Shown here one piece after another: positions 210 to 34,473 of a stretch of 39,837 nt of DNA (positions within the stretch are counted from its first letter, which is position 1; the number at the start of each line of letters is the position of its first letter). Under the pieces are notes generated by a model that had not been told where the DNA came from, made no database searches, and saw nothing but the letters and a program-made list of their open reading frames with translations. Location: UHGV virus genome UHGV-0025829. The stretch is one strand, 5' to 3'. Made by a program: the position numbers and the translations under genes. This DNA is from a virus.

Positions 210-224
210 TTACCTTAAAGGTAT
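210..224. promoter_or_regulatory. Operator-type palindrome TTACCTTAAAGGTAT upstream of integrase
   Basis: Matches the recurring TTACCT-N3-AGGTAA motif with one mismatch; about 45 bp upstream of the int start. Confidence 0.45.
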
Positions 225-266
225 ACTCTCATACCGTCATGAAAATGGTTTTTATACGGGTGAATT

Positions 267-1523
267 GTGCTTACCGATACAAAATTAAAAAACCTCAAGC
301 CACAGGACAAACTGTACAAAGTTTCCGATCGTGACGGGCTGTATGTAGCTGTGCTTACGTCAGGTACGGTCTCGTTTCGCTATGACTACCGTATCAACGG
401 TCGCCGCGAAACACTGGTAATCGGGCAGTATGGGCGTGACGGTATCAGCCTGGCAGAAGCGCGAGAAGAACTGATTGCTGCAAAGAAGCTGCTTAAAGCA
501 GGCCAGTCGCCGGCTGCGGCTAAACGTGACGGTATCAAAAAGATTCGTGGTGCCGAGACGTTTGCGGTACATACCGACAGTTATATGAAACACGTCATCC
601 TGGCTGAAAGTACCCGCGCAATGAAGCAGGCGGTGATCGACCGTGACATACTTCCGGTTCTTGGCAACAAAATGATGGCTGAAATTACCACATCGATGGT
701 TCGTGATTTGTGTGACCGGATTGTCGAACGCGGTGGTCGGGCAACAGCAGTACAGGCCAGGGAGATCATCAGCAGCGTATACCGTCACGCCAATGACCGT
801 GGTCATGGTTTGTTTAATCCTGCTGCTGACATTAAACCTTCGTCTATCGCCATATTTAAACCACGAGAGCGAACACTGACACCAGAAGAAATTGGTCTGT
901 TCTTCCGCACGCTGGATGCCATTGGTGCTATGGGCACTATGAAAATGGCTTTAAAGCTGGTGCTTATCACTATGGTTCGTAAAGGCGAATTCACCAATGC
1001 AACGTGGGATGAAATAGATTTTAAAAAATGGACATGGACAATTCCTTCAGACCGCATGAAGGGAAGCCGGGCGCATGTTATTTACCTGCCTAAACAGGCT
1101 CAGGATATATTGGTCGGGTTGCAGATGTGCGCTGGTGGAAGTGAATATCTGGTTCCTGGTCGTTACAATTTCAGGAAGCCATTATCTAATGCCGCGCTGA
1201 ACTCTCTGATCGACAGAACGGTGAAAATAATAAATGAAGATGGTGAGCATATTCAGGACTTCACCGTACACGATATGCGCCGTACAGCCAGTACGTTGTT
1301 GCATGAGGCTGGTTATCCTTCAGACTGGATTGAAAAGGCTCTGGCACATGAGCAGAAAGGTGTGCGCGCCGTATATAACAAAGCGGAATACGCCAGACAG
1401 CGCGCCTACATGTTGCAGCAGTGGTCCGATATGATTGATTCCTGGATTAACGGGGAGCATACGGATCTGATTCCGTTCTCCCCGTCGAAGTTTGAGAGGT
1501 GGATGGAAGGCAGTAATAAATAA
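267..1523 (+). CDS. int: Tyrosine recombinase / phage integrase (P4-like, with N-terminal arm-binding domain)
   Basis: GTG start; N-terminus LTDTKLKNLKPQDKLYKVSDRDGLYVAV is typical of P4-family integrases; C-terminal catalytic region with HDMRRT and Y-containing tail. Confidence 0.85.
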   Translation: MLTDTKLKNLKPQDKLYKVSDRDGLYVAVLTSGTVSFRYDYRINGRRETLVIGQYGRDGISLAEAREELIAAKKLLKAGQSPAAAKRDGIKKIRGAETFAVHTDSYMKHVILAESTRAMKQAVIDRDILPVLGNKMMAEITTSMVRDLCDRIVERGGRATAVQAREIISSVYRHANDRGHGLFNPAADIKPSSIAIFKPRERTLTPEEIGLFFRTLDAIGAMGTMKMALKLVLITMVRKGEFTNATWDEIDFKKWTWTIPSDRMKGSRAHVIYLPKQAQDILVGLQMCAGGSEYLVPGRYNFRKPLSNAALNSLIDRTVKIINEDGEHIQDFTVHDMRRTASTLLHEAGYPSDWIEKALAHEQKGVRAVYNKAEYARQRAYMLQQWSDMIDSWINGEHTDLIPFSPSKFERWMEGSNK

Positions 1524-1525
1524 TT

Positions 1526-2185
1526 CTATCCTTCCTGGACTTTGGTAAGCGTCAGATTTCCGCAGAACACTGCGCCGGTGTCGATGTACATCTGGTTTGC
1601 ATACACCAGTGGGTGATGTGCTGGCGTATGACCGAAGATGAACAAATCGGCACCGGTTATCTCCGAGACAATACCGTCCTGCGCGTCGCTAACCCGCTCA
1701 CGATTCCATATCACCATTTCTTCCGGTACTGGCTTATCGAATGCGTATTCGTTGTGCGGGTAGTCTGCGTGGCAGATGACGACCTTCTTATTGCCGGTAA
1801 CCAGTTCGATAATCATCGGGAGGTTGGTAATCTTTGGCAGAAGGTATTTGAGTTGCACATCCTGCTCAGAATCAAGTTGGTGCCACCATCCACCGCCGTT
1901 TGACATCCAATGTCCGAAACTTCCGCCGTTGACCAGTGCATCCAGCATCATCTGCTCATGGTTGCCACGAACAGCTCGGAACCACGGCATAGTAATCAAA
2001 TCCAGGCATTCGACGTTTTCAGCGCCGCGGTCAACAAGGTCACCAACGGAAATAAGCAAATCGCGCGCCGGGTCGAATGAAACTTTGTCGAGTTCGTTCA
2101 TCAGCAGCGTGTAGCACCCATGCAGATCGCCGACGACGAAGATATTGCACCAGTCATCGCCATTGATGCGTTGATATAGGTTCAT
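1526..2185 (-). CDS. Ser/Thr protein phosphatase (lambda PPase / NinI-like, metallophosphoesterase)
   Basis: Motifs [15 protein letters not shown] and RGNHE; start ATG (MNLYQRING) overlaps the upstream stop as ATGA. Confidence 0.8.
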
Positions 2186-2832
2186 GCTACACGCTCCCGC
2201 CCCTGGTTGTCTGTTGGTGACAGCGGAGCATTGCTGAATGCATTTGTTAATCTGGCAATATCCAACGCGTATCCAGGGTGTAGTTGCACTGCTGGGTCTT
2301 CGCACTGATTACCCCAAACATCGAAGCCATGAGACGACTGGCGGGCGAACAGTTCAATGCGAGAAACATCGCCTAACAATTGCACAAGTTTTTCACGAAC
2401 GACATCTGGTTTTCTTGAATGCTCAAGCCGCGGTGCGGTAAATGACTGAACGATACCTGCATTAATGCGCGGAGGTAGTTTTCCCTTTACTGCAAACAGG
2501 CAATCTTCACTATTGGCGCGAGTCATGTGACCCATACCCATAACCAGTTTATCTGGTTGTCGACTACCACATTTTATCCACGTGAATCCCTTCATGGTCA
2601 TCAGACGGAATCCCCAGGCTTCAACAACTTTTAGTGCTTCGAGTGGTTGTGTTGGCACCCACCACATGGCCAACAGACAGTTTTCATCGGCCAAATCCCA
2701 CACAGGAAGGCGGCAGATATCCAGCACACTCATAACCGGATATTTAAAACCGGCACCGCGATTACCATCTGCGGCTTTGTCCCGGTATACCCAGGGTGGA
2801 TCTGCATAGATTAGTGTGTATTTCTTAGTCAT
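2182..2832 (-). CDS. DNA N6-adenine methyltransferase, MT-A70 family
   Basis: LIYADPPW motif near the N-terminus; GGGGTGG Shine-Dalgarno before ATG at 2832. Confidence 0.75.
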
Positions 2833-3091
2833 AAACCACCCCACAACATCCTATGCCGCTATAGTCGCCACGGCGAAGGCCGTTACCTTTTGTGATACAT
2901 TGGTCCCTGCGAACCGCGATCCTTGCACGCTCAACATCACCAGAAGCAACATCCATACACTGAAGCCAAAGGTTGGCGGCAATGCGGAACTGCCCTTTTT
3001 TCTCTCTTTCAATCGCGCGTTTTTCGATCTCTATCGCCGCAGGAGAAACGGCAACAACCTTTGAAGGGCTGCGCATTGAAACCTTGTTCAT
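2825..3091 (-). CDS. Hypothetical small protein
   Basis: ORF overlapping the MTase start by 8 nt; start uncertain (ATG at 3091 or 3076). Confidence 0.35.
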   Translation of the reverse strand: MNKVSMRSPSKVVAVSPAAIEIEKRAIEREKKGQFRIAANLWLQCMDVASGDVERARIAVRRDQCITKGNGLRRGDYSGIGCCGVVYD

Positions 3092-3233
3092 GTGATATTT
3101 TTCAAGTCTGCTTAACTTTCTCACTTAATCCAACCCTCTCTGAAAATTAATGCCAGCAGATAAAGCCATGCTGAAACAGAGGCCAAGAATAAGTACCATC
3201 ATGACCATTTGCTCCAGTGCCTTAGCAGCGCAC

Positions 3234-3482
3234 TCATGCAGCGTTGCTCACAGGACGATAGACACGTTGCTGAACAGGAGGTTTTTTACCCTGGAACTCT
3301 GCCGGGCTTGCTGCCTGACGTTCATCAAGCCAACGCTCAACTTCATCACGGTTCCATGCGCAGCGTTTATCGGTGATATACCAGCGTTTAGGAAATTCCC
3401 CTGCGCGCTCCATACGGTCGATAGTGCTCCATGACAGTGGAACCACCGCCAGGAGTTCCTTCTTACCTAATGCACCTTTCAT
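3234..3482 (-). CDS. AlpA-family HTH regulator / excisionase-like protein
   Basis: Short protein with LSWSTIDRMERAGEFPKRWYI...WNRDEVERWL pattern typical of AlpA/Xis; good SD (GAGAGGT). Confidence 0.7.
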   Translation of the reverse strand: MKGALGKKELLAVVPLSWSTIDRMERAGEFPKRWYITDKRCAWNRDEVERWLDERQAASPAEFQGKKPPVQQRVYRPVSNAA

Positions 3483-3531
3483 AAATACCTCTCTTGGTTG
3501 CAGTGCGGCGCGCGTGGCGCCGCGGTGGTGG

Positions 3532-4473
3532 TTACATAGATGTTTCGTTTAATTCTTCCCGACGAACGCTGTAAACGTCGGTGGCTTTTGCCAGCAGTTC
3601 GTCATCATCTGAAAGTTTTTGTGCAATGTATTTGTAAGCCTTATCCAGTTCGGAGACAGTGCTGTAATTCATCGCTGCGCTGGTAAAGGCCATCAGCATT
3701 TCTTCTGGATCACGGCTATCCGATTTACGCGTTTGCTCATCAGGCTTTTTCGCTGGTTTAGCGTTGATCAGACTGTTCATTCCCGCAGCAGTGGTCGTTT
3801 GCGGAGTAATGTCTCGCTCAACGCGCGGTGCCGTTTCCTGTAATTCGTCTGGGGTGTAGACGCCCATGATTACGTCAGGACAGTGCAGGCGAGACCAGCG
3901 TTTTGTCGCAAGGTATGCGAGTTGTTGTTTCGGATCACTGGCCCAAAGTGTGGAGTTTCTTACCTGTGCTTGAGACAGCATTAACTCAAGCACTCGAGGT
4001 TGATCCTCGCCCTTCATGGTTGCCCATACGCGAACACCGCAGCCTTCTTCGTCTTTTAGAGTCCAGCCTGGTGCGATATATGGATTGCCGTTTTTGGATG
4101 TTTTCTCAACAAACTTACCGATCACGCGTTCCCACGGCCCAAACCACTCGTAGTTGATGCGATCTTTTGTTGGCGACATCGTTGAGATAACTGCGTTTAC
4201 TAATTGGGCTTCATAACCTAGCGTGCCGTTCACAACATGGGTTTTCTGAGCCACGGCAAACGGGTTCATTCCCCACTGCGCAGCCTGCATTGCCACGGCC
4301 ATGCAATCAGCTGGTTTCCCGGCGAGGTGCGCCGGTACCGTTACGCGGCTTTGCGCCATTACCTCGGCGAATTTCATCAGTTGGTTCAAGCCGTCTGGGC
4401 TGAAAATAGTTGCAGCAGTTCCAGCGATTGCTGTGTCTACTGGTGCGTTGATGTTTGCGATGTCGTTGCTCAT
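3532..4473 (-). CDS. recT: RecT-family single-strand annealing recombinase
   Basis: RecT-like central region (AQWGMNPFAVAQKTHVVNG...); ATGA overlap with the upstream nuclease gene. Confidence 0.75.
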   Translation of the reverse strand: MSNDIANINAPVDTAIAGTAATIFSPDGLNQLMKFAEVMAQSRVTVPAHLAGKPADCMAVAMQAAQWGMNPFAVAQKTHVVNGTLGYEAQLVNAVISTMSPTKDRINYEWFGPWERVIGKFVEKTSKNGNPYIAPGWTLKDEEGCGVRVWATMKGEDQPRVLELMLSQAQVRNSTLWASDPKQQLAYLATKRWSRLHCPDVIMGVYTPDELQETAPRVERDITPQTTTAAGMNSLINAKPAKKPDEQTRKSDSRDPEEMLMAFTSAAMNYSTVSELDKAYKYIAQKLSDDDELLAKATDVYSVRREELNETSM

Positions 4474-5291: not shown

Positions 5292-5494
5292 AACTTAACC
5301 TTGTATTCGTTCTGCTTGTTGGAACGGGTTCCATCGTGGAAATATATTGCGCTCCTGGTTACCTCTACCCATTTGCGACGTTCAAGCTCAGCGATGAACC
5401 AAGAAACCTTCGATCTTGAGATACCAAGAATCTTTGCCATATCTCGGATGCTGTGTTTTCCACCTCGCAGCAATGAGAGGAGTGTTGGTTTCAT
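5288..5494 (-). CDS. Small winged-HTH DNA-binding protein
   Basis: 68 aa, DMAKILGISRSKVSWFIAELERRKWV HTH-like segment; ATGA coupling on both sides. Confidence 0.5.
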   Translation of the reverse strand: MKPTLLSLLRGGKHSIRDMAKILGISRSKVSWFIAELERRKWVEVTRSAIYFHDGTRSNKQNEYKVKL

Positions 5495-5790: not shown

Positions 5791-5807
5791 TATCAGCCCT
5801 CCCATAT

Positions 5808-5945
5808 CTAGTTATCGTTGGCCACATCGCGAGCTTCTTTGCTGACGAAAGCCCACTTAATGCCTTCCTGTAAGGTGCGGAACTTCCAGCTCATGAATCC
5901 GCATGCAGTAACGCAGTACCAACCGTTGATGATTTTCCACTGCAT
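5808..5945 (-). CDS. Small Cys/Trp-rich hypothetical protein (45 aa), first gene of leftward early operon
   Basis: ATG with GAGGT SD; stop overlaps the SD of the next gene; below the 60-aa cutoff of the ORF track. Confidence 0.35.
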   Translation of the reverse strand: MQWKIINGWYCVTACGFMSWKFRTLQEGIKWAFVSKEARDVANDN

Positions 5946-6026
5946 AACTTGTTACCTCGGTCTGTTACCGTTGAGGTAATGATTATGCGTATTTGGTTTG
6001 GTGTCAATAGATATGAGTTAAAAAAA

Positions 6027-6041
6027 TTACCCTTAAGGTAA
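6027..6041. promoter_or_regulatory. Operator palindrome TTACCCTTAAGGTAA (left operator candidate)
   Basis: Perfect TTACC/GGTAA inverted repeat in the leader of the leftward early operon. Confidence 0.6.
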
Positions 6042-6051
6042 TTGTGCAGGC

Positions 6052-6077
6052 AATAAAAAAGCCGCCAGAAGGCGGCT
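6052..6077 (-). terminator. Rho-independent terminator after repressor gene
   Basis: Hairpin AGCCGCC-AGAA-GGCGGCT followed by T-run on the minus strand. Confidence 0.65.
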
Positions 6078-6098
6078 TACTTACTGAAAAATATGATT

Positions 6099-6683
6099 TT
6101 ATTGTTTGTTTTTTTCGTTCTGGTTGATGACAAATTCAATGTAACTTTCGATCTTTGCTTTCTCGGTTTCGGGTAACAATGCGTAGCGCGAGCGGTCATA
6201 GTTGATGGTCGCAGGGTCGTGCGGGTGAATCAGTAATTCATAGCCGTGACGCCCGAATGCGGATGCAACATTCTCCAGGGTGGAAATGGAAACGCTGACC
6301 TCATTGTTTAACAGGCGGCTGATTGTCACCTGGGCGACGCCGGATGCGCGGTGAAGTTTTCCCTGTGTTGAAAGGTCGCGGCTTTCGCTCATCCAGCGTT
6401 CCAGGTTGTGAGCCGCCAGCTGACCTATATCGCTCGGGCCGACAGGCTGAAAACCTTCCTGAGAAAGCGAGCGATCGATATCAAGCCAGTTACGGGGTTT
6501 ATTGGCGGCAGCTTCAATTTTTCGCGCAACCTGGTCGCCGATAACCTTCTTGCCAAGAGCCCAGCGGTTTACCAGATTTGCCTGAGTTCCAAGTTTTTCT
6601 GCCATCCGCGTCTGAACACCATTGAATTCACGGTCGATCAAGTCGTTGAGATTTTGCCTGCGGACGTCCTGGATACTTTTCAT
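6099..6683 (-). CDS. Immunity repressor (CI-like), two HTH domains, no recognisable S24 peptidase domain
   Basis: Divergent from the Cro-like gene with operators between; HTH segments MAEKLGTQANLVNRWALG and ASGVAQVTISRLLNNEVSVSISTL; no Ser-Lys autocleavage motifs seen. Confidence 0.7.
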   Translation of the reverse strand: MKSIQDVRRQNLNDLIDREFNGVQTRMAEKLGTQANLVNRWALGKKVIGDQVARKIEAAANKPRNWLDIDRSLSQEGFQPVGPSDIGQLAAHNLERWMSESRDLSTQGKLHRASGVAQVTISRLLNNEVSVSISTLENVASAFGRHGYELLIHPHDPATINYDRSRYALLPETEKAKIESYIEFVINQNEKNKQ

Positions 6684-6738: not shown

Positions 6739-6801
6739 TTACCCAACAGGTAAATGCACCCCATAGGTAACTATCCTTGATTTTTGTTACCTTATGGGTG
6801 A
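6739..6801. promoter_or_regulatory. Right operator cluster: three sites (6739..6753 perfect, 6756..6770 and 6787..6801 half-degenerate) in the divergent promoter region
   Basis: TTACCCAACAGGTAA, GCACCCCATAGGTAA and TTACCTTATGGGTGA between repressor start and Cro-like start. Confidence 0.65.
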
Positions 6802-6837
6802 ATATTTATTATCTGAAATAAATATCAGGCAATAGCT

Positions 6838-7068
6838 ATGAGCGATAACGGACATTTCGATTTCAAAAAGCACTGGCTTGCACTTACTCCGGATGAGCGT
6901 GAAGCCTTCGCACAGGAAGCCGGAACGACGAGTCACTATATCCAGACTCACTTAACAGGTAAGCGCAAAATGCCAGGTAAGGTATTGATGAATGGGCTTT
7001 TTAAAGCCTGTAAAACAAGACAATGGCTGCGCTCAAAAGCAGAACTGGCATACTTCTTCTACTCATGA
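6838..7068 (+). CDS. Cro-like small HTH regulator
   Basis: 76 aa, divergent from repressor, HTH-like segment REAFAQEAGTTSHYIQTHLTGKR. Confidence 0.55.
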   Translation: MSDNGHFDFKKHWLALTPDEREAFAQEAGTTSHYIQTHLTGKRKMPGKVLMNGLFKACKTRQWLRSKAELAYFFYS

Positions 7069-7089
7069 TATCCAGCCACAACCCTCTGT

Positions 7090-7123: not shown

Positions 7124-7138
7124 GTACCTCAAAGGTAA
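7124..7138. promoter_or_regulatory. Operator-type palindrome GTACCTCAAAGGTAA
   Basis: Motif copy directly after the terminator. Confidence 0.5.
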
Positions 7139-7218
7139 TAAAAAACCAAATATGGTTGATCTTTTTTTTGTGTCAGCACAAAATAACCGTAATCCCAATA
7201 CTAATAACAGGGCTTACC

Positions 7219-9032: not shown

Positions 9033-9069
9033 TACCAGCGCGATAGCGCATTTTTTTACGCCTTGATAA

Positions 9070-9146
9070 TTACCTGATGGGTAACAAAATATTCTAAACT
9101 CTATTGATTTCGTGTCTTATGTGGTTTTTAATTACCTCAGAGGTAA
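9070..9146. promoter_or_regulatory. Two operator palindromes (9070..9084 TTACCTGATGGGTAA; 9132..9146 TTACCTCAGAGGTAA)
   Basis: Both in the 117-bp gap before the 9150 gene; the second overlaps its SD. Confidence 0.55.
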
Positions 9147-9149: not shown

Positions 9150-9497
9150 ATGAGAAAACAGATACAGGCTCTTGGTCGACTCAAAACAGGCCAGATGAAC
9201 AAAACAGAATCTGCGTATTGCCAGCACCTTGAGCAGCGTAAAAGTGCAGGGGAAATCGCCTGGTATCGATTCGAGGGTATCAAGCTGCGGTTAGCTGATA
9301 ACACGTTTTATACGCCCGATTTCGCTGTGATGCTCGCCACCGGAGAGATGGAACTGCACGAAGTGAAAGGGGGATTCTGGACCGACGACGCCAGGGTGAA
9401 AACCAAAGTCGCCGCAGATCAGTATCCGTTCCGAATCATCGGGGTAACGGTTAAACCAAAGAAAGCAGGTGGTGGCTGGAACATCGAAGAGTTCTGA
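9150..9497 (+). CDS. Putative PD-(D/E)xK-type nuclease (DUF1064-like)
   Basis: 115 aa; TPDFAV...ELHEVKGG motif pattern. Confidence 0.4.
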   Translation: MRKQIQALGRLKTGQMNKTESAYCQHLEQRKSAGEIAWYRFEGIKLRLADNTFYTPDFAVMLATGEMELHEVKGGFWTDDARVKTKVAADQYPFRIIGVTVKPKKAGGGWNIEEF

Positions 9498-11230: not shown

Positions 11231-11511
11231 TGGCTAACCTGCAACTTGCCGTCAAAGGTGAATACTTCGATGCCATGATTCACGGAGATAAAACGGAAGA
11301 GTATCGCCTGTGTAATGACTACTGGAATAAGCGAATCATGTTCCGGGAATATGACCGTCTGATTATCACAAAGGGATATCCGAAGCGCGACGATTCCAGC
11401 CGCAGAATTGATGTTCCGTATGGCGGATATGAAATCAAGACAATCACGCATCCGCACTTCGGTGATAAACCGGTAAAGGTGTTCGCGATAAAGGTGAATA
11501 TCAATGGCTAA
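11230..11511 (+). CDS. Hypothetical protein (possible ASCH/PUA-like fold)
   Basis: TAATG overlap with upstream gene; 93 aa. Confidence 0.4.
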   Translation: MANLQLAVKGEYFDAMIHGDKTEEYRLCNDYWNKRIMFREYDRLIITKGYPKRDDSSRRIDVPYGGYEIKTITHPHFGDKPVKVFAIKVNING

Positions 11512-11842
11512 ATCAGCAGCAGAGCGCAAAGCCGCTCAGAGAGCCAGACAAGCTGCATCCGGTGTACGTAAGCTGGAGATTGTGCTTGATGCTCAGGAAA
11601 TTGAAATGCTGGAGCGTAACTGTGCCACTCGTCGCCCCGGGCGTGCACCTTACGAATTTGGTGAGTATATCGCGTTACTGATCCGCCAGGATGATGTACG
11701 CGTGCGCGGGCGTATAAAATCGATCAGCAGAAAACGTTGCGGTAAGTGCGGCGAGAGAGTTCCTGTGAATTCATGCCCGTGTAATGGTGACTCGCAATGC
11801 TGGGTGACTAAAGGCTGGCATGAAACGAAATTAATAGTGTGA
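11504..11842 (+). CDS. Hypothetical protein with basic N-terminus and C-terminal Cys4 zinc-ribbon-like motif
   Basis: CGKCGERVPVNSCPCNGDSQC; last gene before the late operon. Confidence 0.45.
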   Translation: MAKSAAERKAAQRARQAASGVRKLEIVLDAQEIEMLERNCATRRPGRAPYEFGEYIALLIRQDDVRVRGRIKSISRKRCGKCGERVPVNSCPCNGDSQCWVTKGWHETKLIV

Positions 11843-11850
11843 CATGTCAC
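11839..11850. repeat. 12-bp perfect palindrome GTGACATGTCAC (copy 1 of 3)
   Basis: Exact sequence also at 14290..14301 and 32086..32097. Confidence 0.7.
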
Positions 11851-12072
11851 GAATGTGTTATGCCAAAAATACGCTACGACCTTGAAGATATGAGAGATAA
11901 CTCAGCAAATTTTCCGAAAGAGGTTAAATTTCTCATGCATAAGTATGGTTGCGCCAGGAGGGATATAGTTATCGACAGTCACCACCCTTGCGGCGAGGAT
12001 GTAATTTTCATTCGCGGTAAATGGGAAGGGTATCTTGACGAGAGTTTTTACGATGAATTTGATGGACTTTGA
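11839..12072 (+). CDS. Hypothetical protein (start uncertain: GTG 11839 or ATG 11860)
   Basis: ORF ends 26 bp before terminator; GTG start would coincide with the GTGACATGTCAC palindrome. Confidence 0.4.
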   Translation: MTCHECVMPKIRYDLEDMRDNSANFPKEVKFLMHKYGCARRDIVIDSHHPCGEDVIFIRGKWEGYLDESFYDEFDGL

Positions 12073-12077
12073 ATACT

Positions 12078-12103
12078 GCCGCCAACTATGGCGGCTTTAT
12101 TTT
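12078..12103 (+). terminator. Rho-independent terminator separating early genes from the terminase operon
   Basis: Stem GCCGCC/GGCGGC, loop AACTAT, then TTTATTTT. Confidence 0.65.
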
Positions 12104-12114
12104 GCATGGTACTA

Positions 12115-12129
12115 TTACCATAACGGTAA
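12115..12129. promoter_or_regulatory. Operator palindrome TTACCATAACGGTAA upstream of terminase small subunit (plus degenerate copy 12133..12147)
   Basis: Perfect half-sites 21 bp before the terS ATG. Confidence 0.55.
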
Positions 12130-12149
12130 CAATTACCAGGGTGGTTATT

Positions 12150-12743
12150 ATGCCTGCTGAACCTAAAACCTATAAACGCAAATCAACGCAATTTAAGCCG
12201 CTCACAGCAATGCAGGAGGCTTATTGCCAGTCATACATCAAAACGCCTGAAAACCAGACTCAGGCAGCGATTAACGCAGGATTCTCCCCAAATACAGCGG
12301 CAGTTAAAGCCAGCGTCATGATGCGCGATGAACGCATTCAAAAACGGATTGCCGAGTTGATGGAAGAGCGCAACAAACGAATGCGCGTCAGTGCTGATTA
12401 CGTTCTCATGCGCCTGGTGGAGATCGACCAGATGGACGTGATTGATATCCTCAACGACGATGGGAGTCTTAAGCCAATCCGCGAGTGGCCGAAAATATGG
12501 CGCACTACGCTTAGCGGCTTTGATCTGTCATCGACCATCATGAACATGAACGAGGACTCGATAGAGACAATCCTCAAAAAAATTAAATGGCCTGACAAGG
12601 TGAAGAACCTAGAACTGATTGGTAAGCACGTCGACGTCAACGCATTTAAAGAACGCCTGGATGTTAATGTGAATGTGACAATTGCTGATCGCATAGCAGC
12701 AGCCAGGAAGAGACTGAAAGAACGTCAGGATGGCAATCAGTGA
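12150..12743 (+). CDS. Terminase small subunit
   Basis: Immediately upstream of and overlapping the large subunit; LTAMQEAYCQSYIKTPENQTQAAINAGFSP resembles the Terminase_2 family. Confidence 0.75.
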   Translation: MPAEPKTYKRKSTQFKPLTAMQEAYCQSYIKTPENQTQAAINAGFSPNTAAVKASVMMRDERIQKRIAELMEERNKRMRVSADYVLMRLVEIDQMDVIDILNDDGSLKPIREWPKIWRTTLSGFDLSSTIMNMNEDSIETILKKIKWPDKVKNLELIGKHVDVNAFKERLDVNVNVTIADRIAAARKRLKERQDGNQ

Positions 12744-14289: not shown

Positions 14290-14301
14290 GTGACATGTCA
14301 C
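14290..14301. repeat. 12-bp perfect palindrome GTGACATGTCAC (copy 2 of 3)
   Basis: Exact match; lies between ORF stop and terminator. Confidence 0.7.
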
Positions 14302-14677: not shown

Positions 14678-14875
14678 AATCTCACCTTAAAAAAATGCCC
14701 GGCGAACCGGGCGAACTGGAAGCAATGAGTTATGCCTTCCGTGGCTGTACTGGTTTACAGCATGAAGTCATCGCAATGGCGTCCTGCTGTAAAAAGGGCG
14801 GTGATAGTCCTTCAAGGGAAACCATCACCGCCAAGCCCCTGGAACTTCTGGCATCACGGTCCTTAGGCGTGATTC

Positions 14876-15274: not shown

Positions 15275-15289
15275 TTACCTGAAAGGTAA
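15275..15289. promoter_or_regulatory. Operator palindrome TTACCTGAAAGGTAA upstream of the virion operon
   Basis: Perfect motif copy about 90 bp before the 15380 start. Confidence 0.55.
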
Positions 15290-15379
15290 TAATTCGTGCG
15301 TTAAATGTCAACCATCTACGATAAATAAATCATATATGGTTAAATTGGTAATAATTTAATTGCGTACGGAGTCATTGAT

Positions 15380-19771: not shown

Positions 19772-20107
19772 ATGTCAGGTGAGAAACCAAGATACCGCGT
19801 TCTGCGCCTCTCTCTTATCCATAACACTCTGTGGCCGGAGGGGGCAGAAATCGAATACGAAGGTGAGCCTGGTAGCGCACTGGAACCTGTTAACGATGCA
19901 GCCAGACAGGCAAAAGCAAAAGTTGCAGGAAAGGTGTCAATGGCAGCAACCAGCACCAAAATCATCAACGATGTGTCAGATGATGGTGAACTGGATAAGC
20001 TCCGTGAAGAGTACGAATTGCTCTTTAACGAGAGGCCACACCATAACGCCAAAGCCGAAACGCTCCGCGAGAAGATCGCAGATAAGCGTAAAGAACTGGG
20101 CGTGTAA
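19772..20107 (+). CDS. Hypothetical virion-module protein
   Basis: ATG with AGGTGA SD; 111 aa. Confidence 0.45.
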   Translation: MSGEKPRYRVLRLSLIHNTLWPEGAEIEYEGEPGSALEPVNDAARQAKAKVAGKVSMAATSTKIINDVSDDGELDKLREEYELLFNERPHHNAKAETLREKIADKRKELGV

Positions 20108-20481: not shown

Positions 20482-21086
20482 TGGCCTCTGTAGTAGAGAT
20501 CTGCAATCGTGCGCTGTCCAATATTGGCAACAGCCGCAGCATTAACAGCCTGACGGAAGCCAGCAAGGAAGCGGGGGAATGTTCGCTGCACTTTGAGGCC
20601 TGCCGTGATGCTGTGCTTTCTGATTTTGACTGGAACTTTGCTACCAAACGCGTGGCGCTTGCAGATACGAGCAATCCACCGCCTGACTGGGAATATGCGT
20701 ACCAGTACCCGTCCGATTGTCTGCGCATTACTGAAATTATGCTTCCTGGTGTACGCAATCCAACAGCAGCAATGCGCGTTCAGTACGAAGTTGGTGCAGA
20801 CACCAACGGAACAGGAAAGTTGATCTACACAGACCAGCCGCAGGCATGGCTCAAGTATGTATCTCGCGTTTCAGATGTGAACATGTTTGATGCCATTTTT
20901 ATGGAGGCGTTGGCCTGGCGTCTTGCGGCAGCTATTAACATGGCGCTGACTGGGAATGCAGACCTCGGTACGTTTGCCCTCAATATGTACAATCGCGTGA
21001 TTCTTAGTGCTGGCTCGCATAGCCAGAATGAATCACAGGAACCACAGCCACCGGTTGACGAGTTTACCATTGCGAGGTTGTCCTGA
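20481..21086 (+). CDS. Tail tubular protein A (T7 gp11-like adaptor)
   Basis: 201 aa; N-terminal pattern resembles T7 gp11 as recalled; precedes an 823-aa protein, as gp11 precedes gp12 in T7. Confidence 0.5.
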   Translation: MASVVEICNRALSNIGNSRSINSLTEASKEAGECSLHFEACRDAVLSDFDWNFATKRVALADTSNPPPDWEYAYQYPSDCLRITEIMLPGVRNPTAAMRVQYEVGADTNGTGKLIYTDQPQAWLKYVSRVSDVNMFDAIFMEALAWRLAAAINMALTGNADLGTFALNMYNRVILSAGSHSQNESQEPQPPVDEFTIARLS

Positions 21087-29179: not shown

Positions 29180-29184
29180 ATTAA

Positions 29185-31659
29185 ATGAGACAGGAATGTA
29201 TACAAGCGGTCCAGCAGGCGGCGCAGCGCACGTTAACGGCGCGAGAAATACAGAACATTGAAGACCGCATTTATCGAAATATGCGCTCCATTGCTCGTGA
29301 TGACCCGATGTCGTGGAGACAACTTTCCGAATCAGAGCGGCTATATCGTGCAGCACAATTGGCATCTGAAGAATTACAGCGAGAAGCGGCATTAAAGAAA
29401 CGTCGTGTGGCCCTCACTATAGCCGCACGTCAGAGATTGGATAAATTTATCAATAGCTATCAAGGGGCTGATGGGAAACTTGGCGCTCTTAACCGTACTA
29501 TTGCTTTTAATGCAGACGGTAAATCGAATTTCCTCTCTGTTGAGTCCAGAACAAAAGCCACTCGTGATTATGCATTGAGTCAATTGCAGGAGGCATTCGA
29601 AGCAGTTGATCCTCGCTTTTTTGGTCTGTTTGAAGATGAAGCGGGCGTACGTGACCTGGTATATGAAATGCGAGGGCAAAATACTGGCAATGCTAAAGCA
29701 AGAAAAGGTGCTAAGGCGTGGAGAGAAGTGACAGATCTACTGCGCCGCCGGTTTAATGATGCTGGTGGGGACATTGGCTATCTCGAAAACTGGGGAATCC
29801 CTCAACATCATTCTATGGAAAAGGTTGGGGCGGTATCAAAGGATAAGTGGGTTAGCGATGTTATAGGTAAGCTGGATCGCAAATATTATATCCGAGCCGA
29901 TGGACAACTGATGAACGATGCCGAGTTGTCTGCATTTCTTGGAGAGGCTTATAACACGATCGCTACTGGTGGGCTGAATAAGCTTACTGATACCGGAATG
30001 CGAATTTCCGGCGCACGTGCTAACCGTGGTAATGCATCACGACAGATACATTTCAAAGATGCAGATTCCTATCTGCAATATCAGCAACTTTATGGCGATC
30101 GCTCTCTATGGGAAATCATGGTCGGTCACCTGGAAGGTATCAGTAAAGATATTGCACTGGTGGAAACATATGGCCCAAACCCTGATCATGTTTTCCGCTC
30201 TCTTCTTGATCAGGTGAAGGCAGAAACGGCAACAGCTAACCCGAGTAAAACCGGTAGCGTCGAGCGGCTGGCGAACAAAACAGAGAACCTGTACAACTTT
30301 ATTTCCGGAAAGACACAGCCTGTTGCGAATCCTCACATCGCGCGCTGGTCTGACAATATCAGAAACTGGCTGGTTGCCAGCAGGCTCGGATCCGCGTTGC
30401 TGTCATCGTTCTCTGATCTTGGAACCATATATCTGTCTGCGAAGGTTACCAACCTTCCAATGAACCAGTTATTCCGCAACCAGCTTGAAGCTATGGACCC
30501 AACGAACCGTACTGAGCTTGCGCGGGCGCGCCGCGCTGGTCTGGCGATGGAATCTCTACTTGGCAGCGTTAACCGCTGGGCGATGGATAATATGGGGCCG
30601 TCTGTGTCTCGTTGGGCGGCAACGGCGGTAATGCGTGCCAGTGGACTTACAGCATGGTCAGATGCGCACAAGCGCGCTTATGGCGTAACCATGATGGGAA
30701 GCCTGGGAGAAGTAGTGTCACGGACACCAGACCTTCGTAGCCTCGATGACTCTGATTTTCGTATCCTGAAAAGCAAAGGGATTACTGACACAGACTGGAG
30801 CGTATGGAAGCTGGCGCAACAGGAGGACTGGGGGAACGGTAATAATACGATGCTGACACCGGAAAGCATTATGCGTATCCCTGATTCAGCAGTTAAACAT
30901 CTTGGTGAGCCTGAACGTGTGAAATTTGAGGCAATGCGTAAACTGCTCGGTGCCGTAACTGAAGAAGTTGATATGGCTGTTATTACACCGGGCGCACGTG
31001 AACAGATGTTCGTAGGGTCTGGTCTTCAGCGTGGAACATGGAAAGGTGAATTAACGAGAAGTGTTTTCCTGTTTAAATCGTTCCCTATCTCGGTAGTTAT
31101 GCGTCACTGGCATAGAGCTATGGGGATGCCGTCTGCTGGTGGGCGTGCGGCATATATAGCAACGTTTTTAGCAAGCACAACCATGCTTGGTGCTCTTTCC
31201 ATGCAGATTACTGATCTTATTAATGGGAGAAATCCAAAAGAAATGACCGGTGACAACATGGTTAAATTCTGGATAAATGCATTTTTAAAAGGTGGTGGGG
31301 CAGGGTTGTATGGTGATTTTCTTTTCTCTGACCACACCAGGTACGGGAGCGGCGCACTAGCGTCGATGCTTGGCCCGGTAGCTGGTCTGGTTGATGACGT
31401 AGTGAAGATTGCTCAGGGCATACCGTTAAATGCTGTGGAAGGGAAGAATGAGCAGACTGGTGGTGATTTGGTTAAGCTTGGGAAAGGTTTGATGCCTGGT
31501 GCGAATCTCTGGTATTTGAAGGCGGCTCTCGATCACATGATCTTTAACCAGATGCAGGAGTATTTTTCACCAGGCTATTTGCGTAAAATGGAGCAACGTT
31601 CAAAGAAAGAGTTTAACCAGACATACTGGTGGCGACCTCAGGATGTCACTCCGCAATAA
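29185..31659 (+). CDS. Large internal virion (ejection) protein
   Basis: 824 aa with GAGAGG SD; last gene of the core-protein block. Confidence 0.5.
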   Translation: MRQECIQAVQQAAQRTLTAREIQNIEDRIYRNMRSIARDDPMSWRQLSESERLYRAAQLASEELQREAALKKRRVALTIAARQRLDKFINSYQGADGKLGALNRTIAFNADGKSNFLSVESRTKATRDYALSQLQEAFEAVDPRFFGLFEDEAGVRDLVYEMRGQNTGNAKARKGAKAWREVTDLLRRRFNDAGGDIGYLENWGIPQHHSMEKVGAVSKDKWVSDVIGKLDRKYYIRADGQLMNDAELSAFLGEAYNTIATGGLNKLTDTGMRISGARANRGNASRQIHFKDADSYLQYQQLYGDRSLWEIMVGHLEGISKDIALVETYGPNPDHVFRSLLDQVKAETATANPSKTGSVERLANKTENLYNFISGKTQPVANPHIARWSDNIRNWLVASRLGSALLSSFSDLGTIYLSAKVTNLPMNQLFRNQLEAMDPTNRTELARARRAGLAMESLLGSVNRWAMDNMGPSVSRWAATAVMRASGLTAWSDAHKRAYGVTMMGSLGEVVSRTPDLRSLDDSDFRILKSKGITDTDWSVWKLAQQEDWGNGNNTMLTPESIMRIPDSAVKHLGEPERVKFEAMRKLLGAVTEEVDMAVITPGAREQMFVGSGLQRGTWKGELTRSVFLFKSFPISVVMRHWHRAMGMPSAGGRAAYIATFLASTTMLGALSMQITDLINGRNPKEMTGDNMVKFWINAFLKGGGAGLYGDFLFSDHTRYGSGALASMLGPVAGLVDDVVKIAQGIPLNAVEGKNEQTGGDLVKLGKGLMPGANLWYLKAALDHMIFNQMQEYFSPGYLRKMEQRSKKEFNQTYWWRPQDVTPQ

Positions 31660-31668
31660 GGAACAACA

Positions 31669-32082
31669 ATGAAGGAATTATTGCTGTTATCGGTATTTTT
31701 GATATCCGCTTGCTCGACATCCTATGATGTTTATGACGGTGTTGATAAGGCATATTGCGACAAAGTTAAAATGGATTTTTCTCTTGCCAAGACGGCGAAG
31801 GATAGTTGTATTGATCACTACGTCAAGACTTATACCAAGCCAGCCTCATCGGCATCTGATATTGCTGAAGGTGCTGTGTTTGAGTGTAACAAGGTGATAT
31901 CCATCGCAGCGAGTTCTTCATACGATGCTGCTGTATGTGCAATGGCTGAAAGAAACGGCATGTCAGTGCAAAAAATTAATAGCATGATAAGCAGTAATGA
32001 CGAAGCCAAAATAAGAACTGATATCAGCTCGGTGAAAAAAGATGCCATGAACAGAGTTGTAAAATATCAGTCATCTTTATAA
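31669..32082 (+). CDS. Lipoprotein (candidate superinfection-exclusion / moron)
   Basis: Signal peptide MKELLLLSVFLISAC with lipobox; six Cys in the mature part. Confidence 0.6.
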   Translation: MKELLLLSVFLISACSTSYDVYDGVDKAYCDKVKMDFSLAKTAKDSCIDHYVKTYTKPASSASDIAEGAVFECNKVISIAASSSYDAAVCAMAERNGMSVQKINSMISSNDEAKIRTDISSVKKDAMNRVVKYQSSL

Positions 32083-32085
32083 GTC

Positions 32086-32097
32086 GTGACATGTCAC
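32086..32097. repeat. 12-bp perfect palindrome GTGACATGTCAC (copy 3 of 3)
   Basis: Exact match 4 bp after the lipoprotein stop and directly before the terminator. Confidence 0.7.
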
Positions 32098-32098
32098 A

Positions 32099-32122
32099 GG
32101 CCGCTTTCGCGGCCTTGTTTTT
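32099..32122 (+). terminator. Rho-independent terminator ending the late virion operon
   Basis: GGCCGC-TTTC-GCGGCC followed by TTGTTTTT. Confidence 0.7.
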
Positions 32123-32282
32123 AACGAATGCCACCGCCGCCCGGGCGGGAATCCGCAGAACGCCCACCGCAGCGGGAGCCGTCAGCGGCAGTATCGCTGT
32201 CGTGCTGACAACGACCGGCAAAGGCCTGAGTTGAAGCTACCAGAGACAACAAAACGAACAGTGCAGCAAATGCTTTTTTCAT
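32121..32282 (-). CDS. Candidate small secreted peptide (53 aa)
   Basis: Signal peptide MKKAFAALFVLLSLVASTQAFA; sigma70-like promoter TTGACG-17-ATAGAT upstream; weak SD; part of a longer spurious ORF in the track. Confidence 0.3.
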   Translation of the reverse strand: MKKAFAALFVLLSLVASTQAFAGRCQHDSDTAADGSRCGGRSADSRPGGGGIR

Positions 32283-32353
32283 TGTGAAATTTCCATCTAT
32301 AAGCCACCTCAATGTGGCGTCAATGAGTGTTAGCACTGACTTTTGTTTCGTCC

Positions 32354-32376
32354 ACAAAAAATCCCGCAGCGCGGGC
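32354..32376 (-). terminator. Rho-independent terminator after the AT-rich cassette
   Basis: CCCGC-AGC-GCGGG hairpin followed by T-run on the minus strand, directly after the stop at 32377. Confidence 0.55.
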
Positions 32377-32817
32377 TTATTCTTCTTCATCATTAAAAAG
32401 CGGATTGTTATTTCCATCTGATGAAAGGAAAGGTATGTGTTCTCTTGAAAATCCAACAATGACAATTTCATTATCATTTTTTGCATAATGAATGCATTCA
32501 TTAGAATGCATTCCGCCAGGGTTGAAATTTAAGTTAATGGTATAATTCTTAAATGTGTTTGGATACCATGTTGGCCCACAATGATAATGCCAATAATTCT
32601 CTTGCTCATAATTGTCTGAGCCTGGAATTTTATCATGGTTATCATCAACCCACGAGGGCTTGTTTTTTCCAACAAGCGCCCTTCCATTGGCAACATCCTC
32701 TAAAAACCTTTGTATGATTTTTATTTCATCATCAGTAAGGAAAGGTCCGTCTACAGCGAAAGGGGTGTTGCTTTCCCCATGTAGAAAACTATTAGATATT
32801 CTAATGTTAAACTTCAA
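32377..32817 (-). CDS. Hypothetical protein, AT-rich foreign-looking gene (146 aa)
   Basis: Asn/Ile/Phe-rich, strongly AT-biased codons compared with neighbours; no motif recognised. Confidence 0.55.
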   Translation of the reverse strand: MKFNIRISNSFLHGESNTPFAVDGPFLTDDEIKIIQRFLEDVANGRALVGKNKPSWVDDNHDKIPGSDNYEQENYWHYHCGPTWYPNTFKNYTINLNFNPGGMHSNECIHYAKNDNEIVIVGFSREHIPFLSSDGNNNPLFNDEEE

Positions 32818-32837
32818 GGAAAACTCCTGATGTGCTT

Positions 32838-33005
32838 CTATTTGGAGCGAAATGCCGCCTTGAAGTCGCTAAAAGATGTTCCTGTCTGGTAAACCATATC
32901 CTTGTCGCGCTCTTTGCTTGCGCGACCAAGCATAACTTTTCCAATGACATCCCAGCATTGCTTGGCTTGTTCATTGTGCTGAGTACGATTTTTCAACGCT
33001 GTCAT
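32838..33005 (-). CDS. Small hypothetical protein (55 aa) upstream of the AT-rich gene
   Basis: ATG 7 nt after AGGAGG SD; stop 20 bp before the next start; below the ORF-track cutoff. Confidence 0.45.
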   Translation of the reverse strand: MTALKNRTQHNEQAKQCWDVIGKVMLGRASKERDKDMVYQTGTSFSDFKAAFRSK

Positions 33006-33017
33006 ATCGCGCCTCCT

Positions 33018-33032
33018 TTACCTTTAAGGTAA
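33018..33032. promoter_or_regulatory. Operator palindrome TTACCTTTAAGGTAA
   Basis: Perfect motif copy abutting the SD of the 33005 gene. Confidence 0.55.
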
Positions 33033-33098
33033 TATTACGCGAATCTACATCACATCGCCAATGATTATTTTAAAGGCACATCCCTGTGCCGCCGCCCA

Positions 33099-33810
33099 TC
33101 AGAAGAACCCAGCTTTGTCGTTGATGTACTCCGCGTGCGTCTGGATATCACGCAGGCATTTACTCACACCAACGATGTAGCAGAACATGGTGGTCAGTTC
33201 CGCCGCCGCGCCCGATACATCATGCCCGTCGTCCTGCAACTGATTCAGCAGATTCATCAGCAATGAGTTCTCCGTCAGGCCGAGAACACCAGACGGTGAA
33301 TGAATCAGACTGCGGTAGCCTGGCTTCAGTGGGGCACTGTAGGTTTTGTTCTCTATCTTCATTGCCTGTATTACTGCTGACGCCGTGGCGTTGGCTACCT
33401 GGTCGGCAACCATCTTTATGCGTTCTTCCTGCGGGAGCGAGTTTTTAATGTAACTTCCGGTGCGGCGGATCTGAGGAAGAACCTCACCTGTAACCCATTT
33501 ACGAAAGCGGTAGGGGATAGTGCCTGGTGTCACCGCATCGCGGCAGCGGAGGATCAGTGTGTAGAGGCCTGACTCGGAGATGATGTTGATCTCTTTTACT
33601 CGGCTGTCAAAAATTGCACGATGTTCATGCCCTATGTTGAACATAGACCTTTCATCATCATCCAGTTTTTCAAGTGATTGGGTGACGTTTTGGATACGCA
33701 GCGCACTACAAACGTCTTGGGCTACAAACCATGGTTGGCCATCGATAATGATGGAACGGATAGGGTTAACAGATTCAAATTTGAAGATGGCAGTTTGAGC
33801 ATTAGCCATG
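33099..33810 (-). CDS. Antirepressor (Bro-N / Ant-like N-terminal domain plus C-terminal domain)
   Basis: FKFESVNPIRSIIIDGQPWFVAQDVCSALRIQNVTQSLEKLDDDE matches the Bro-N fold pattern; ATG at 33810 with GGAGAT SD; C-terminus paralogous to the 34125..34382 product. Confidence 0.7.
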
Positions 33811-33827
33811 GTGGTTATCTCCACTTA

Positions 33828-33841
33828 GTGATTTTAATCAC
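33828..33841. promoter_or_regulatory. 14-bp perfect palindrome GTGATTTTAATCAC at the antirepressor promoter/RBS
   Basis: Lies 18 bp upstream of the ant ATG, next to the SD. Confidence 0.5.
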
Positions 33842-33963
33842 CACCGCAACGCCAATTACTGGTGGTGAACTGGACAAGGTTGGCGTACCGGCCTAAGTGG
33901 TACCGGCGTCCTTTCGGACCCCTGCCCAGCCCACCATAATTCGGATATGGCTGTGCTTAACGC

Positions 33964-33988
33964 ATAAAAAAACCACGTCTGGCGTGGT
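33964..33988 (-). terminator. Rho-independent terminator inside the ant upstream region
   Basis: ACCACG-TCTGG-CGTGGT hairpin with T-run on the minus strand. Confidence 0.5.
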
Positions 33989-34078
33989 ATGCGCCACTTA
34001 GTAACTCGGGACGCCAATCCCGGCACTGGATTTTGCCAGTACCCGATTACTATGGCACAAGAGGAGTGCGATGTAAAT

Positions 34079-34093
34079 TTACCTCAAAGGTAA
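34079..34093. promoter_or_regulatory. Operator palindrome TTACCTCAAAGGTAA
   Basis: Perfect motif copy 32 bp downstream of the small antirepressor-paralog gene. Confidence 0.55.
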
Positions 34094-34124
34094 ATATAAG
34101 CACTCCATTTGGTAATTGCAAACC

Positions 34125-34382
34125 TTATCTGGTTTGTTTTCGTAATTGTTCGGCACAATAGTCGAGATGTGTTTGCAGATCCTGCATAGACATCTGTGAG
34201 CTGGTGACGTAGTTAATCAATGCAGTCAGTTCGGCAAGTGGGCCATCGACATTAAATCCATCCTTATCGAGATCCCGGAGTAATTTCATCAAGTGCGATC
34301 CCTCCACCAGTGACCTGACGCCTCCCGGCGTGTGAATCCTTTCGGTAAATCCGTCTTCCAGTGGATAGTGATACTGCTGCAT
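34125..34382 (-). CDS. Small antirepressor-domain protein (paralog of the Ant C-terminal domain), LexA-regulated candidate
   Basis: 85 aa from ATG 34382 with GGAGAA SD; aligns with the Ant C-terminus (HxPxGV...AELT...DxQTH); LexA box just upstream. Confidence 0.6.
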   Translation of the reverse strand: MQQYHYPLEDGFTERIHTPGGVRSLVEGSHLMKLLRDLDKDGFNVDGPLAELTALINYVTSSQMSMQDLQTHLDYCAEQLRKQTR

Positions 34383-34401
34383 CTTATCTTCTCCATGCAA
34401 T

Positions 34402-34421
34402 AACTGTATATTTATACAGTA
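34402..34421. promoter_or_regulatory. LexA (SOS) box AACTGTATATTTATACAGTA
   Basis: CTGT-N8-ACAG with AT-rich centre, close to the E. coli consensus TACTGTATATATATACAGTA. Confidence 0.7.
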
Positions 34422-34458
34422 GCAAATAATTTGTTTGCTATCCAGCACGTTTTGCAAA

Positions 34459-34473
34459 TCACCTGAAAGGTAA
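34459..34473. promoter_or_regulatory. Operator-type palindrome TCACCTGAAAGGTAA
   Basis: One mismatch in the left half; between the LexA box and the tailspike start. Confidence 0.45.

Follow-up and report, generated by a model that had tools for sequence, protein, structure and literature searches.

What is the role of a short palindrome that recurs at gene starts and in intergenic gaps along an entire prophage? The question is raised by the 39,837-nucleotide viral genome UHGV-0025829, analysed here over its whole length (the window), which is a complete phiV10-like prophage (genus Uetakevirus, epsilon15-like) integrated at the 3' end of guaA. The answer that we favour, with a probability of roughly 0.85 as judged from sequence comparison, is that the palindromes constitute the operator set of the lysogeny repressor Rep, encoded at 6099..6683 and belonging to the XRE family in the form known from phage SPC32H. 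The nearest relatives of the window are Escherichia phages phiV10 and PAS61, with 97-98% identity over the compared stretches (the immunity/replication region and the virion region), whereas Enterobacter phage Tyrion and Salmonella phage epsilon15 are more distant (75-81% identity); all belong to the genus Uetakevirus.

An earlier note on this DNA had listed 13 copies of a 15-base-pair (bp) palindrome, TTACCT-N3-AGGTAA, and the motif is indeed present at all 13 positions. Four copies are perfect (9132, 15275, 33018 and 34079; 0.00 expected), and 16 occur at no more than two mismatches, compared to 0.87 expected and a maximum of 4 in 100 shuffles. The near-perfect quality ascribed to the 13 copies holds for most of them but not for the weak one at 6756, which carries three mismatches to this pattern and two to the core defined below. 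The palindrome is thus real, but the pattern was over-specified, its invariant part being the shorter TTACC-N5-GGTAA. By position count, TTACC and GGTAA are essentially invariant, T is favoured at position 6 and the centre is A/T-rich; frequent A/T flanks extend the core to ATTACC-N5-GGTAAT. When every palindrome with 5-nt arms and a gap of 0 to 9 was counted and ranked, this core came out on top de novo in the window, phiV10, PAS61, SPC32H and Klebsiella phage BUCT711, each with 8-10 exact copies where ~0.04 are expected. The window holds nine exact core sites and 15 at one mismatch or fewer, 14 of the latter within the 3,190 non-coding bases that make up 8% of its length (binomial P = 6e-15); shuffling of the non-coding DNA alone yields a mean of 0.1 core sites and at most 3. 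Near-matches inside genes (6948, 24812, 30126 and 35993) are about as numerous as expected by chance.

The scan of the window and of related phages gave frequencies far above those in shuffled controls: at no more than two mismatches to TTACCT-N3-AGGTAA, there are 16 sites in epsilon15 (0.81 expected) and 15 in Tyrion (0.66 expected), and SPC32H has 18 core sites at one mismatch or fewer (0.74 expected). Pseudomonas phage PseuP_224, of which the cI protein shares only the N-terminal 34% (39% identity), displayed neither enrichment of the motif nor a comparable palindrome near cI, but is too distant a case to be informative. Two sites are added to those listed earlier, namely an exact core at 5965..5979 and a weak site at 12133..12147; the weak extra copy suspected at 37629..37643 is no site but a conserved lysis-operon leader with its Shine-Dalgarno sequence, without the GGTAA half in every relative. 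All told, fourteen to sixteen non-coding sites are spread over about twelve transcription units.

The assignment of these sites to Rep starts from the immunity region, which contains the following features.

6099..6683, minus strand: gene of the repressor Rep, a full-length homologue of SPC32H Rep (PDB 5D50)
6739..6753: O_R1, the operator closest to rep; exact core, half-sites invariant
6756..6770: O_R2, the middle operator, degenerate (GCACCCCATAGGTAA), its core having two mismatches here as well as in Tyrion
6787..6801: O_R3, an operator within the Cro-side rightward promoter; one core mismatch
6838..7068, plus strand: Cro-like gene, divergent from rep; matches phrog_35 'transcriptional repressor' (E = 5.6e-13)

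In a phmmer comparison, Rep matched chain A of 5D50 over residues 1-190 (E = 4e-42); Pfam identified HTH_3 at residues 106-147, in the middle domain, and no peptidase domain (S24). The Cro-like protein matched no Pfam family. The claim that the gap separating the divergent repressor and Cro-like genes holds a cluster of three operators is confirmed, and the triple recurs in relatives: 6739/6756/6787 align with 34390/34407/34437 of SPC32H and 33341/33358/33388 of epsilon15, with a spacing of 17 + 30/31 bp throughout. The position of the degenerate O_R2 is occupied by exact sites, 17 bp from O_R1, in epsilon15, SPC32H and BUCT711. O_R3 lies between an invariant -35 block, TTGATT (6777..6782), and a -10 region at 6800..6812, whereas on the other side the TAATAT that adjoins O_R1 on the minus strand may be the -10 hexamer of the rep promoter.

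Conservation provides the second line of evidence. The palindrome occupies syntenic places in epsilon15, SPC32H, Tyrion and BUCT711: before terS, the virion operon, the lysis genes and int, in the ant-tailspike gap, at the leftward early promoter, in the rep-cro gap and before the DUF1064/RuvC gene. In alignments of eight intergenic regions, with up to five phage genomes each, the half-sites stand out as invariant islands, whereas the 5 nt in the middle and a large part of the surrounding DNA vary among the five phages, which come from four host genera. The half-sites are invariant even though the repressors of the five phages are just 42-78% identical overall; the best-conserved part of Rep is the N-terminal 72 residues (53% versus 32-45% in distant pairs), with an invariant NLVNRW. 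The GenBank record of epsilon15 (AY150271.2) already contains seven dispersed features annotated as 'protein_bind: repressor (lysogeny)', which are located before terS, the virion operon and gp43, in the gp19-tailspike gap and in the leftward early promoter region (three sites) and are orthologous to the sites at 12115, 15275, 34459, 5965/6027 and 9070 of the window. That annotation omits the rep-cro triple, the downstream partner of a 62-bp pair (described below) and the lysis and int sites, all of which match the motif. The rep-cro cluster, the positions at the head of transcription units, the invariance of the half-sites and the labels in epsilon15 all support the proposal of the earlier note that the sites are operators of the repressor encoded at 6099..6683.

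The early and accessory transcription units carry the next group of sites.

210..224: candidate operator before the integrase gene, TTACCTTAAAGGTAT; one core mismatch (final A to T), conserved in five genomes
5965..5979: O_L1, the proximal operator of the leftward early promoter; exact core
5979..6007, minus strand: predicted leftward early promoter (PL-like), TTGACA-17-AATCAT; 10/12 consensus matches
6027..6041: O_L2, the distal operator of the leftward promoter; exact core, 62 bp from O_L1
7124..7138: operator past the cro terminator and before the replication operon; one core mismatch, present in phiV10 and Tyrion
9070..9084: operator in the promoter spacer of the DUF1064/Eae operon; exact core, inside TTGATA-16-CAAAAT (9063..9090)
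9132..9146: operator 62 bp downstream of 9070; perfect, its right half GAGGTAA being the Shine-Dalgarno sequence of the gene at 9150
33018..33032: operator of the small leftward accessory operon (32838..33005 and downstream genes); perfect

The majority of the sites share bases with predicted sigma-70 elements, be it around -10/+1 or in the -35/-10 spacer; a small number are located in leaders or ahead of the promoter. Two layouts recur. In one, the 3' end of the -10 hexamer is at the same time the start of the operator (xxxxAT|TACC), which then covers about -6..+8, as at 5965, 12115, 33018 and 34079; in the other, the operator fills the -35/-10 spacer, as at the Cro-side 6787, at 9070 and probably at the promoter of rep itself. 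The first layout is exemplified by PL, the best promoter match of the window, the -10 hexamer of which adjoins O_L1; the half-sites of O_L1 and the -35 hexamer of PL are invariant in five genomes. In the PL leader (5940..5986, minus strand), the left half of the 5965 site, UUACCUC, can pair with the Shine-Dalgarno sequence GAGGUAA of the first gene (-10.2 kcal/mol, z = -3.2), a pairing that matters only if the transcript includes the left arm. At 33018, which has no counterpart in the site list of phiV10, the operator adjoins the TAATAT of TTGGCG-18-TAATAT (33061..33032, minus strand) and is followed by AGGAGG and ATG. The second layout is conserved at 9070, where the half-sites and the neighbouring -10 hexamer (TAAAAT in relatives) are retained. 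The downstream site at 9132 is preceded by TTGATT-17-TTTAAT, which, on our reading of the alignment, might be a second promoter ending at the site, and its GGTAAA-tc-ATG arrangement is conserved in five genomes. The site at 7124 is centred ~60 bp upstream of the predicted start of TTGATC-17-CAAAAT (7156..7184); in SPC32H, no core match at one mismatch or fewer was found at the syntenic place. The observation that several sites abut or overlap Shine-Dalgarno sequences was correct for three of them (9132, 33018 and 12133).

Two pairs of sites, 5965/6027 and 9070/9132, are each exactly 62 bp apart, a spacing kept at both loci in phiV10, PAS61, Tyrion, epsilon15 and SPC32H; in BUCT711, the spacings are 62 and 63 bp, with 63 at the leftward promoter. 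Among uncultivated viral contigs, 32 of 135 gaps between adjacent exact sites measure 62 bp and 35 of 135 measure 61-63 bp; these contigs are probably relatives rather than independent cases, and only spacings in multi-site contigs were used, the scan with a motif of 14 specified bases having given many single chance matches that were set aside. Both the 62-bp pairs and the 17 + 30/31-bp triple are compatible with a tetramer that contains two DNA-binding dimers. SPC32H Rep is described, in the part of PMC9638917 that cites Kim et al. (2016), as a tetramer on palindromic DNA that is disassembled by the tetrameric antirepressor Ant, and a passage of PMC9986798 divides it into an N-terminal DNA-binding, a middle dimerisation and a C-terminal tetramerisation domain. 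By analogy, a pair of N-terminal helix-turn-helix domains would read the two TTACC half-sites of each operator, and the Rep tetramer would hold two operators at once, which would explain the conserved 62-bp pairs and the rep-cro triple, presumably with looping of the intervening DNA. At most units, where the operator lies on the predicted binding site of RNA polymerase, bound Rep would block initiation. Phage ZX5 has an identical repressor, and overexpression of this protein eliminated free phage and lowered the endolysin and holin transcripts by >99.9% (PMC9782041).

How such a repressor might be removed is suggested by two antirepressor genes and their control elements.

33099..33809, minus strand: large antirepressor, with Bro-N (Pfam E = 3.7e-19) and an Ant-like C-terminal domain
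33858..33941, minus strand: C4-antisense-like RNA (Rfam RF01695, 66 bits, above the gathering threshold)
33966..34042, minus strand: isrK-like RNA (Hfq-binding isrK; Rfam RF01394, 63.5 bits, above the gathering threshold)
34079..34093: operator located on the promoter that reads into the isrK/C4-like RNAs and the Bro-N antirepressor gene; perfect, orthologue at 20497 of phiV10
34125..34382, minus strand: small antirepressor Ant, closely related to Ant of SPC32H (chain E of PDB 5D50, E = 4e-47)
34404..34419: LexA box upstream of ant, CTGTATATTTATACAG; exact CTGT-N8-ACAG, conserved in five genomes

Over its C-terminal part, the large antirepressor shares 42% identity with the small Ant (E = 2e-19). 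Its operator at 34079 adjoins the TATATT of TTGCAA-17-TATATT (34121..34093, minus strand), and this promoter is followed by the isrK-like RNA, the C4-antisense-like RNA and then the Bro-N gene, so that the RNAs form its leader. This arrangement resembles the immunity region of P1/P7 and the Gifsy isrK-anrP locus; in P1, the c4 RNA limits synthesis of Ant, and C1 controls many dispersed operators (PMC8546580). The statement that sites stand before both antirepressor genes is valid for 34079, on the Bro-N promoter, but the small Ant appears to be primarily under the LexA box, the site at 34459 lying ~45-60 bp upstream of the ant promoter and being shared with the tailspike side. A second LexA-like box, CTGTACTGGTTTACAG (14745..14760), upstream of an Sf6 gp66-like gene, was discarded, its centre not being A/T-rich and the pattern occurring at chance frequency. 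In SPC32H, expression of Ant is reportedly controlled by LexA, and Rep is said to stay uncleaved during the SOS response. Lacking a self-cleavage domain, Rep of the window would likewise be removed through the small Ant, the gene of which would be held off by host LexA: DNA damage would release Ant, Ant would take Rep off the DNA, and all Rep-controlled units would open together. The larger antirepressor, itself repressed by Rep and placed behind the C4/isrK-like RNAs, would reinforce the switch. What the sequences establish directly is the statistics, positions and conservation of the motif and the homologies; the binding of Rep to the sites, the promoter assignments, the looping, this antirepressor feedback loop and the action of the sites upstream of the late operons are predictions drawn from them.

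The terminase, virion and tailspike genes also carry sites, and the late operons share a further conserved element.

12115..12129: terminase-operon operator; exact core, adjoining the extended -10 element TGgTACTAT (12107..12115)
12133..12147: weak second site beside 12115, TTACCAGGGTGGTTA; one core mismatch, covering the Shine-Dalgarno sequence of terS
15275..15289: operator of the virion (portal-capsid-tail) operon; perfect, half-sites invariant
34459..34473: operator in the gap that separates the divergent ant and tailspike genes; one core mismatch (TCACC), exact in relatives
15331..15354, 34503..34529 and 37601..37624: late-promoter-like module CATATnnGGTT, with a core, CCATATATGG, that is itself palindromic; before the virion, tailspike and lysis operons
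7144..7155 (minus strand) and 9115..9126: related copies of the module

The epsilon15 orthologues of three of these sites (12..27 for 12115, 2931..2947 for 15275 and 19895..19911 for 34459) are all labelled as repressor-binding. The terminase -10 element is kept as TGnTACTAT in five genomes, and the pattern ATTACCnnGGTGGTwA at 12133 is conserved in relatives. As a side observation, terS probably starts at the ATG at 12150 (within the region 12069..12152), which matches epsilon15, and not at the upstream TTG given in the phiV10 and PAS61 records; with the latter start, the gene would enclose a terminator, a promoter and two operators. The CATATnnGGTT module is followed after 7 nt by TAATAA, TAATAG or TATGAT (TATAAT in phiV10), all of the form TAnnAn; it is almost unchanged from one member of the genus to the next and keeps a constant distance to the repressor site. 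The operator lies upstream of the module by 56 bp at the virion operon and by 44 bp at the tailspike gene, and by 47 bp at the lysis operon in phiV10 and SPC32H. The 44-bp distance is the same in the window, phiV10, SPC32H and BUCT711, although 29 bp in between have diverged almost completely. The module resembles an activator-dependent late promoter and may be the target of a late activator; a candidate regulator is the product of the last early-right gene (11504..11842), which matches phrog_536 'transcriptional regulator'.

Several observations weigh against the assignment of all sites to Rep, or against repression by occlusion as their common mode of action. The promoter calls are consensus matches, several of them weak, and promoter-like matches are in total no more numerous than in shuffles; the promoter argument rests on the conserved juxtaposition of sites and promoter elements and not on the scan. 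The virion and tailspike operators and the lysis operators of relatives are located upstream of the CATATnnGGTT module without overlap, so that simple occlusion does not explain the late-operon sites. The lysis operon of the window has no site at all; the one found in phiV10, epsilon15, SPC32H and Tyrion lies ~45 bp upstream of the stretch that corresponds to 37629..37643 and has been lost here through replacement of the upstream segment. That sites precede most transcription units is borne out for most, but the claim is ambiguous for 210, before the integrase gene: this site is nested in an inverted repeat, TGACGGTA (202..209) and TACCGTCA (232..239), in the attP arm, the orthologous stretch of epsilon15 is annotated with integrase and RNase III sites instead of a repressor site, and the palindrome may instead be part of the attP arm or serve in the control of int. 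Finally, the Cro-like protein could use the same sites. With regard to the late operons, direct gating by Rep in a manner other than simple occlusion is a tentative suggestion that we regard as possible but rather doubtful. The centres of the late operators fall near -60, -70 and -80 by rough start-site estimates, that is, on one face of the helix. If true, a flat single-repressor regulon would replace the early-to-late cascade of lambda and P1, with the tetramer reaching the late promoters by loops of 50-62 bp or interfering with a late activator.

The remaining alternatives concern either the protein that reads the palindromes or the level at which they act. In classical switches, CI and Cro share operators, and here the Cro-like gene is divergent from rep and matches a phage family of transcriptional repressors, whereas the variable centres and flanks of the sites would allow graded affinities for its product. 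It is therefore quite conceivable, at somewhat below even odds, that the Cro-like protein shares or mainly uses the sites with another order of preference, damping the early units in lytic growth; nevertheless, this protein lacks a Pfam match, it is the DNA-binding domain of Rep that parallels the half-sites in conservation, and use by the Cro-like protein would add to the binding of Rep, not replace it. The window encodes several other predicted regulators (PerC-like, AlpA-like and phrog_536), and one of these or a host protein might recognise the motif in place of Rep. We consider this highly improbable, given that the triple cluster lies exactly between rep and cro, that the annotators of epsilon15 assigned the sites to the repressor and that the motif is kept together with the Rep DNA-binding domain across phages of E. 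coli, Salmonella, Enterobacter and Klebsiella.

A subset of sites might instead act after initiation, those in leaders (9132, 12133 and 33018) or 60-80 bp upstream of the late modules (7124, 15275 and 34459) blocking elongation or read-through from upstream units in the manner of stoperators, given that some of them follow a predicted start or stand right after a terminator and that the late-operon sites do not overlap the promoter-like module. This is unlikely: each leader site can also be read as lying on its own promoter or as the partner in a 62-bp pair, the repressor family is tetrameric and not monomeric (PMC9638917), and symmetric sites cannot have the orientation bias that defines stoperators (PMC9283540). 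That the palindromes function as RNA hairpins in leaders, hiding Shine-Dalgarno sequences or marking processing sites, is scarcely credible. The AGGTAA half does contain the Shine-Dalgarno-like AGGT, three sites cover or abut ribosome-binding sites, and two longer leader stretches (PL and 33018) fold better than shuffles (z about -3). The isolated palindromes, however, fold weakly (-2 to -4.6 kcal/mol, z -0.03 to -1.9), and where one arm deviates from the palindrome, the other never changes to match, a pattern typical of protein sites and not of RNA stems; on these two grounds we rejected the hairpin explanation. Moreover, many sites are upstream of any plausible start or between divergent promoters, and their centre is not constrained in the manner of a hairpin loop.

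Beyond the operators, three features delimit or distinguish the prophage.

60..76 and 39565..39581: att core ATTGAGTGGGAATGATT, 17 bp, direct repeats that bound the prophage at the 3' end of guaA
14876..14952, minus strand: tRNA-Arg (anticodon TCT), in the long non-coding stretch of the gap between the terminase and virion operons
31669..33005: accessory segment unlike phiV10, with a lipoprotein-like gene (31669..32082) and three small leftward genes

The att site at guaA is also given for phiV10, epsilon15 and ZX5 (PMC9782041), and the SPC32H record has a tRNA gene at the same place as the tRNA-Arg of the window. The three small leftward genes of the accessory segment match phrog_8607, phrog_5954 and phrog_3117 and have their own operator-bearing promoter at 33018. 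A distinct 12-bp palindrome, GTGACATGTCAC, occurs in three copies (11839..11850, 14290..14301 and 32086..32097; ~0.04 expected), each of which ends a rightward operon and adjoins a rho-independent terminator; the copies are syntenic in phiV10, PAS61, SPC32H and BUCT711.

Among the known systems, the closest in sequence is the Rep/Ant/LexA switch of SPC32H (PDB 5D4Z and 5D50), with which the window shares a full-length Rep without peptidase, an Ant gene under a LexA box, palindromic operators between rep and cro in a 17 + 30-bp triple, sites at the same loci and the 62-bp pairs. The differences are nonetheless appreciable: Rep is ~42% identical overall and 53% in the DNA-binding domain, and SPC32H uses A or T about equally at position 6, where the window prefers T. 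The window goes beyond SPC32H in the Bro-N antirepressor, the C4/isrK-like RNAs and the operators at 33018 and 34079, whereas it has neither the third, downstream site in the PL leader nor the lysis-operon site of that phage. From a practical standpoint, the outcome is a complete map of the operators of phiV10-type prophages that can be put to the test. Such prophages are frequent in E. coli O157 and its kin, and they serve as reporter phages. Nearly every unit, early as well as late, carries a site of one repressor, and the structure of that repressor and its antirepressor are known, which makes the genus a convenient one for studying how a tetrameric repressor acts on 62-bp pairs and how a LexA-controlled antirepressor opens a whole genome.

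The similarity to lambda OL/OR consists in the tripartite rep-cro operator and a second group of sites at the leftward early promoter, and cooperative binding of an oligomer is likely here as well. Unlike lambda, the window has at least 10 sites at other units and no RecA-dependent self-cleavage domain, and its induction would proceed through a LexA-controlled antirepressor. The earlier note had placed the system closer to stoperator-type control, and the mycobacteriophages L5, Bxb1 and TipsytheTRex do resemble it in having many repressor sites spread mostly over short intergenic gaps. Stoperators, however, are asymmetric 13-14-bp sequences oriented with transcription, which are bound by a monomer through two domains and stop elongation (PMC9283540). 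That comparison fails, given that the sites described here are symmetric and lie mostly on predicted core promoter elements and that the homologous repressor is tetrameric (PMC9638917).

The closest functional analogue appears to be the dispersed operator set of P1 C1 rather than the stoperators. In P1, too, one repressor serves scattered promoters (22 operators; PMC8546580), the antirepressor operon includes an antisense RNA of the C4 type, and antirepressors, not cleavage, put the repressor out of action. The likeness is one of functional analogy only: Rep matches the XRE/HTH_3 families and SPC32H Rep, and the P1 operators are asymmetric 17-mers, ATTGCTCTAATAAATTT (PMC8546580), in contrast to the different, symmetric sequence found here. 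The novelty implied by the earlier note was accordingly overstated, since the dispersed operators of P1 C1 have long been known (PMC8546580) and sites of this kind were already annotated in the phage genus. A dispersed repressor regulon in Uetakevirus is already on the public record, and the window is a fuller example of it rather than a new principle. The points of remaining interest are the 62-bp pairs and the operators beside the late promoters: whereas the late operons of P1 are controlled indirectly through Lpa, here operators adjoin the late operons as well.

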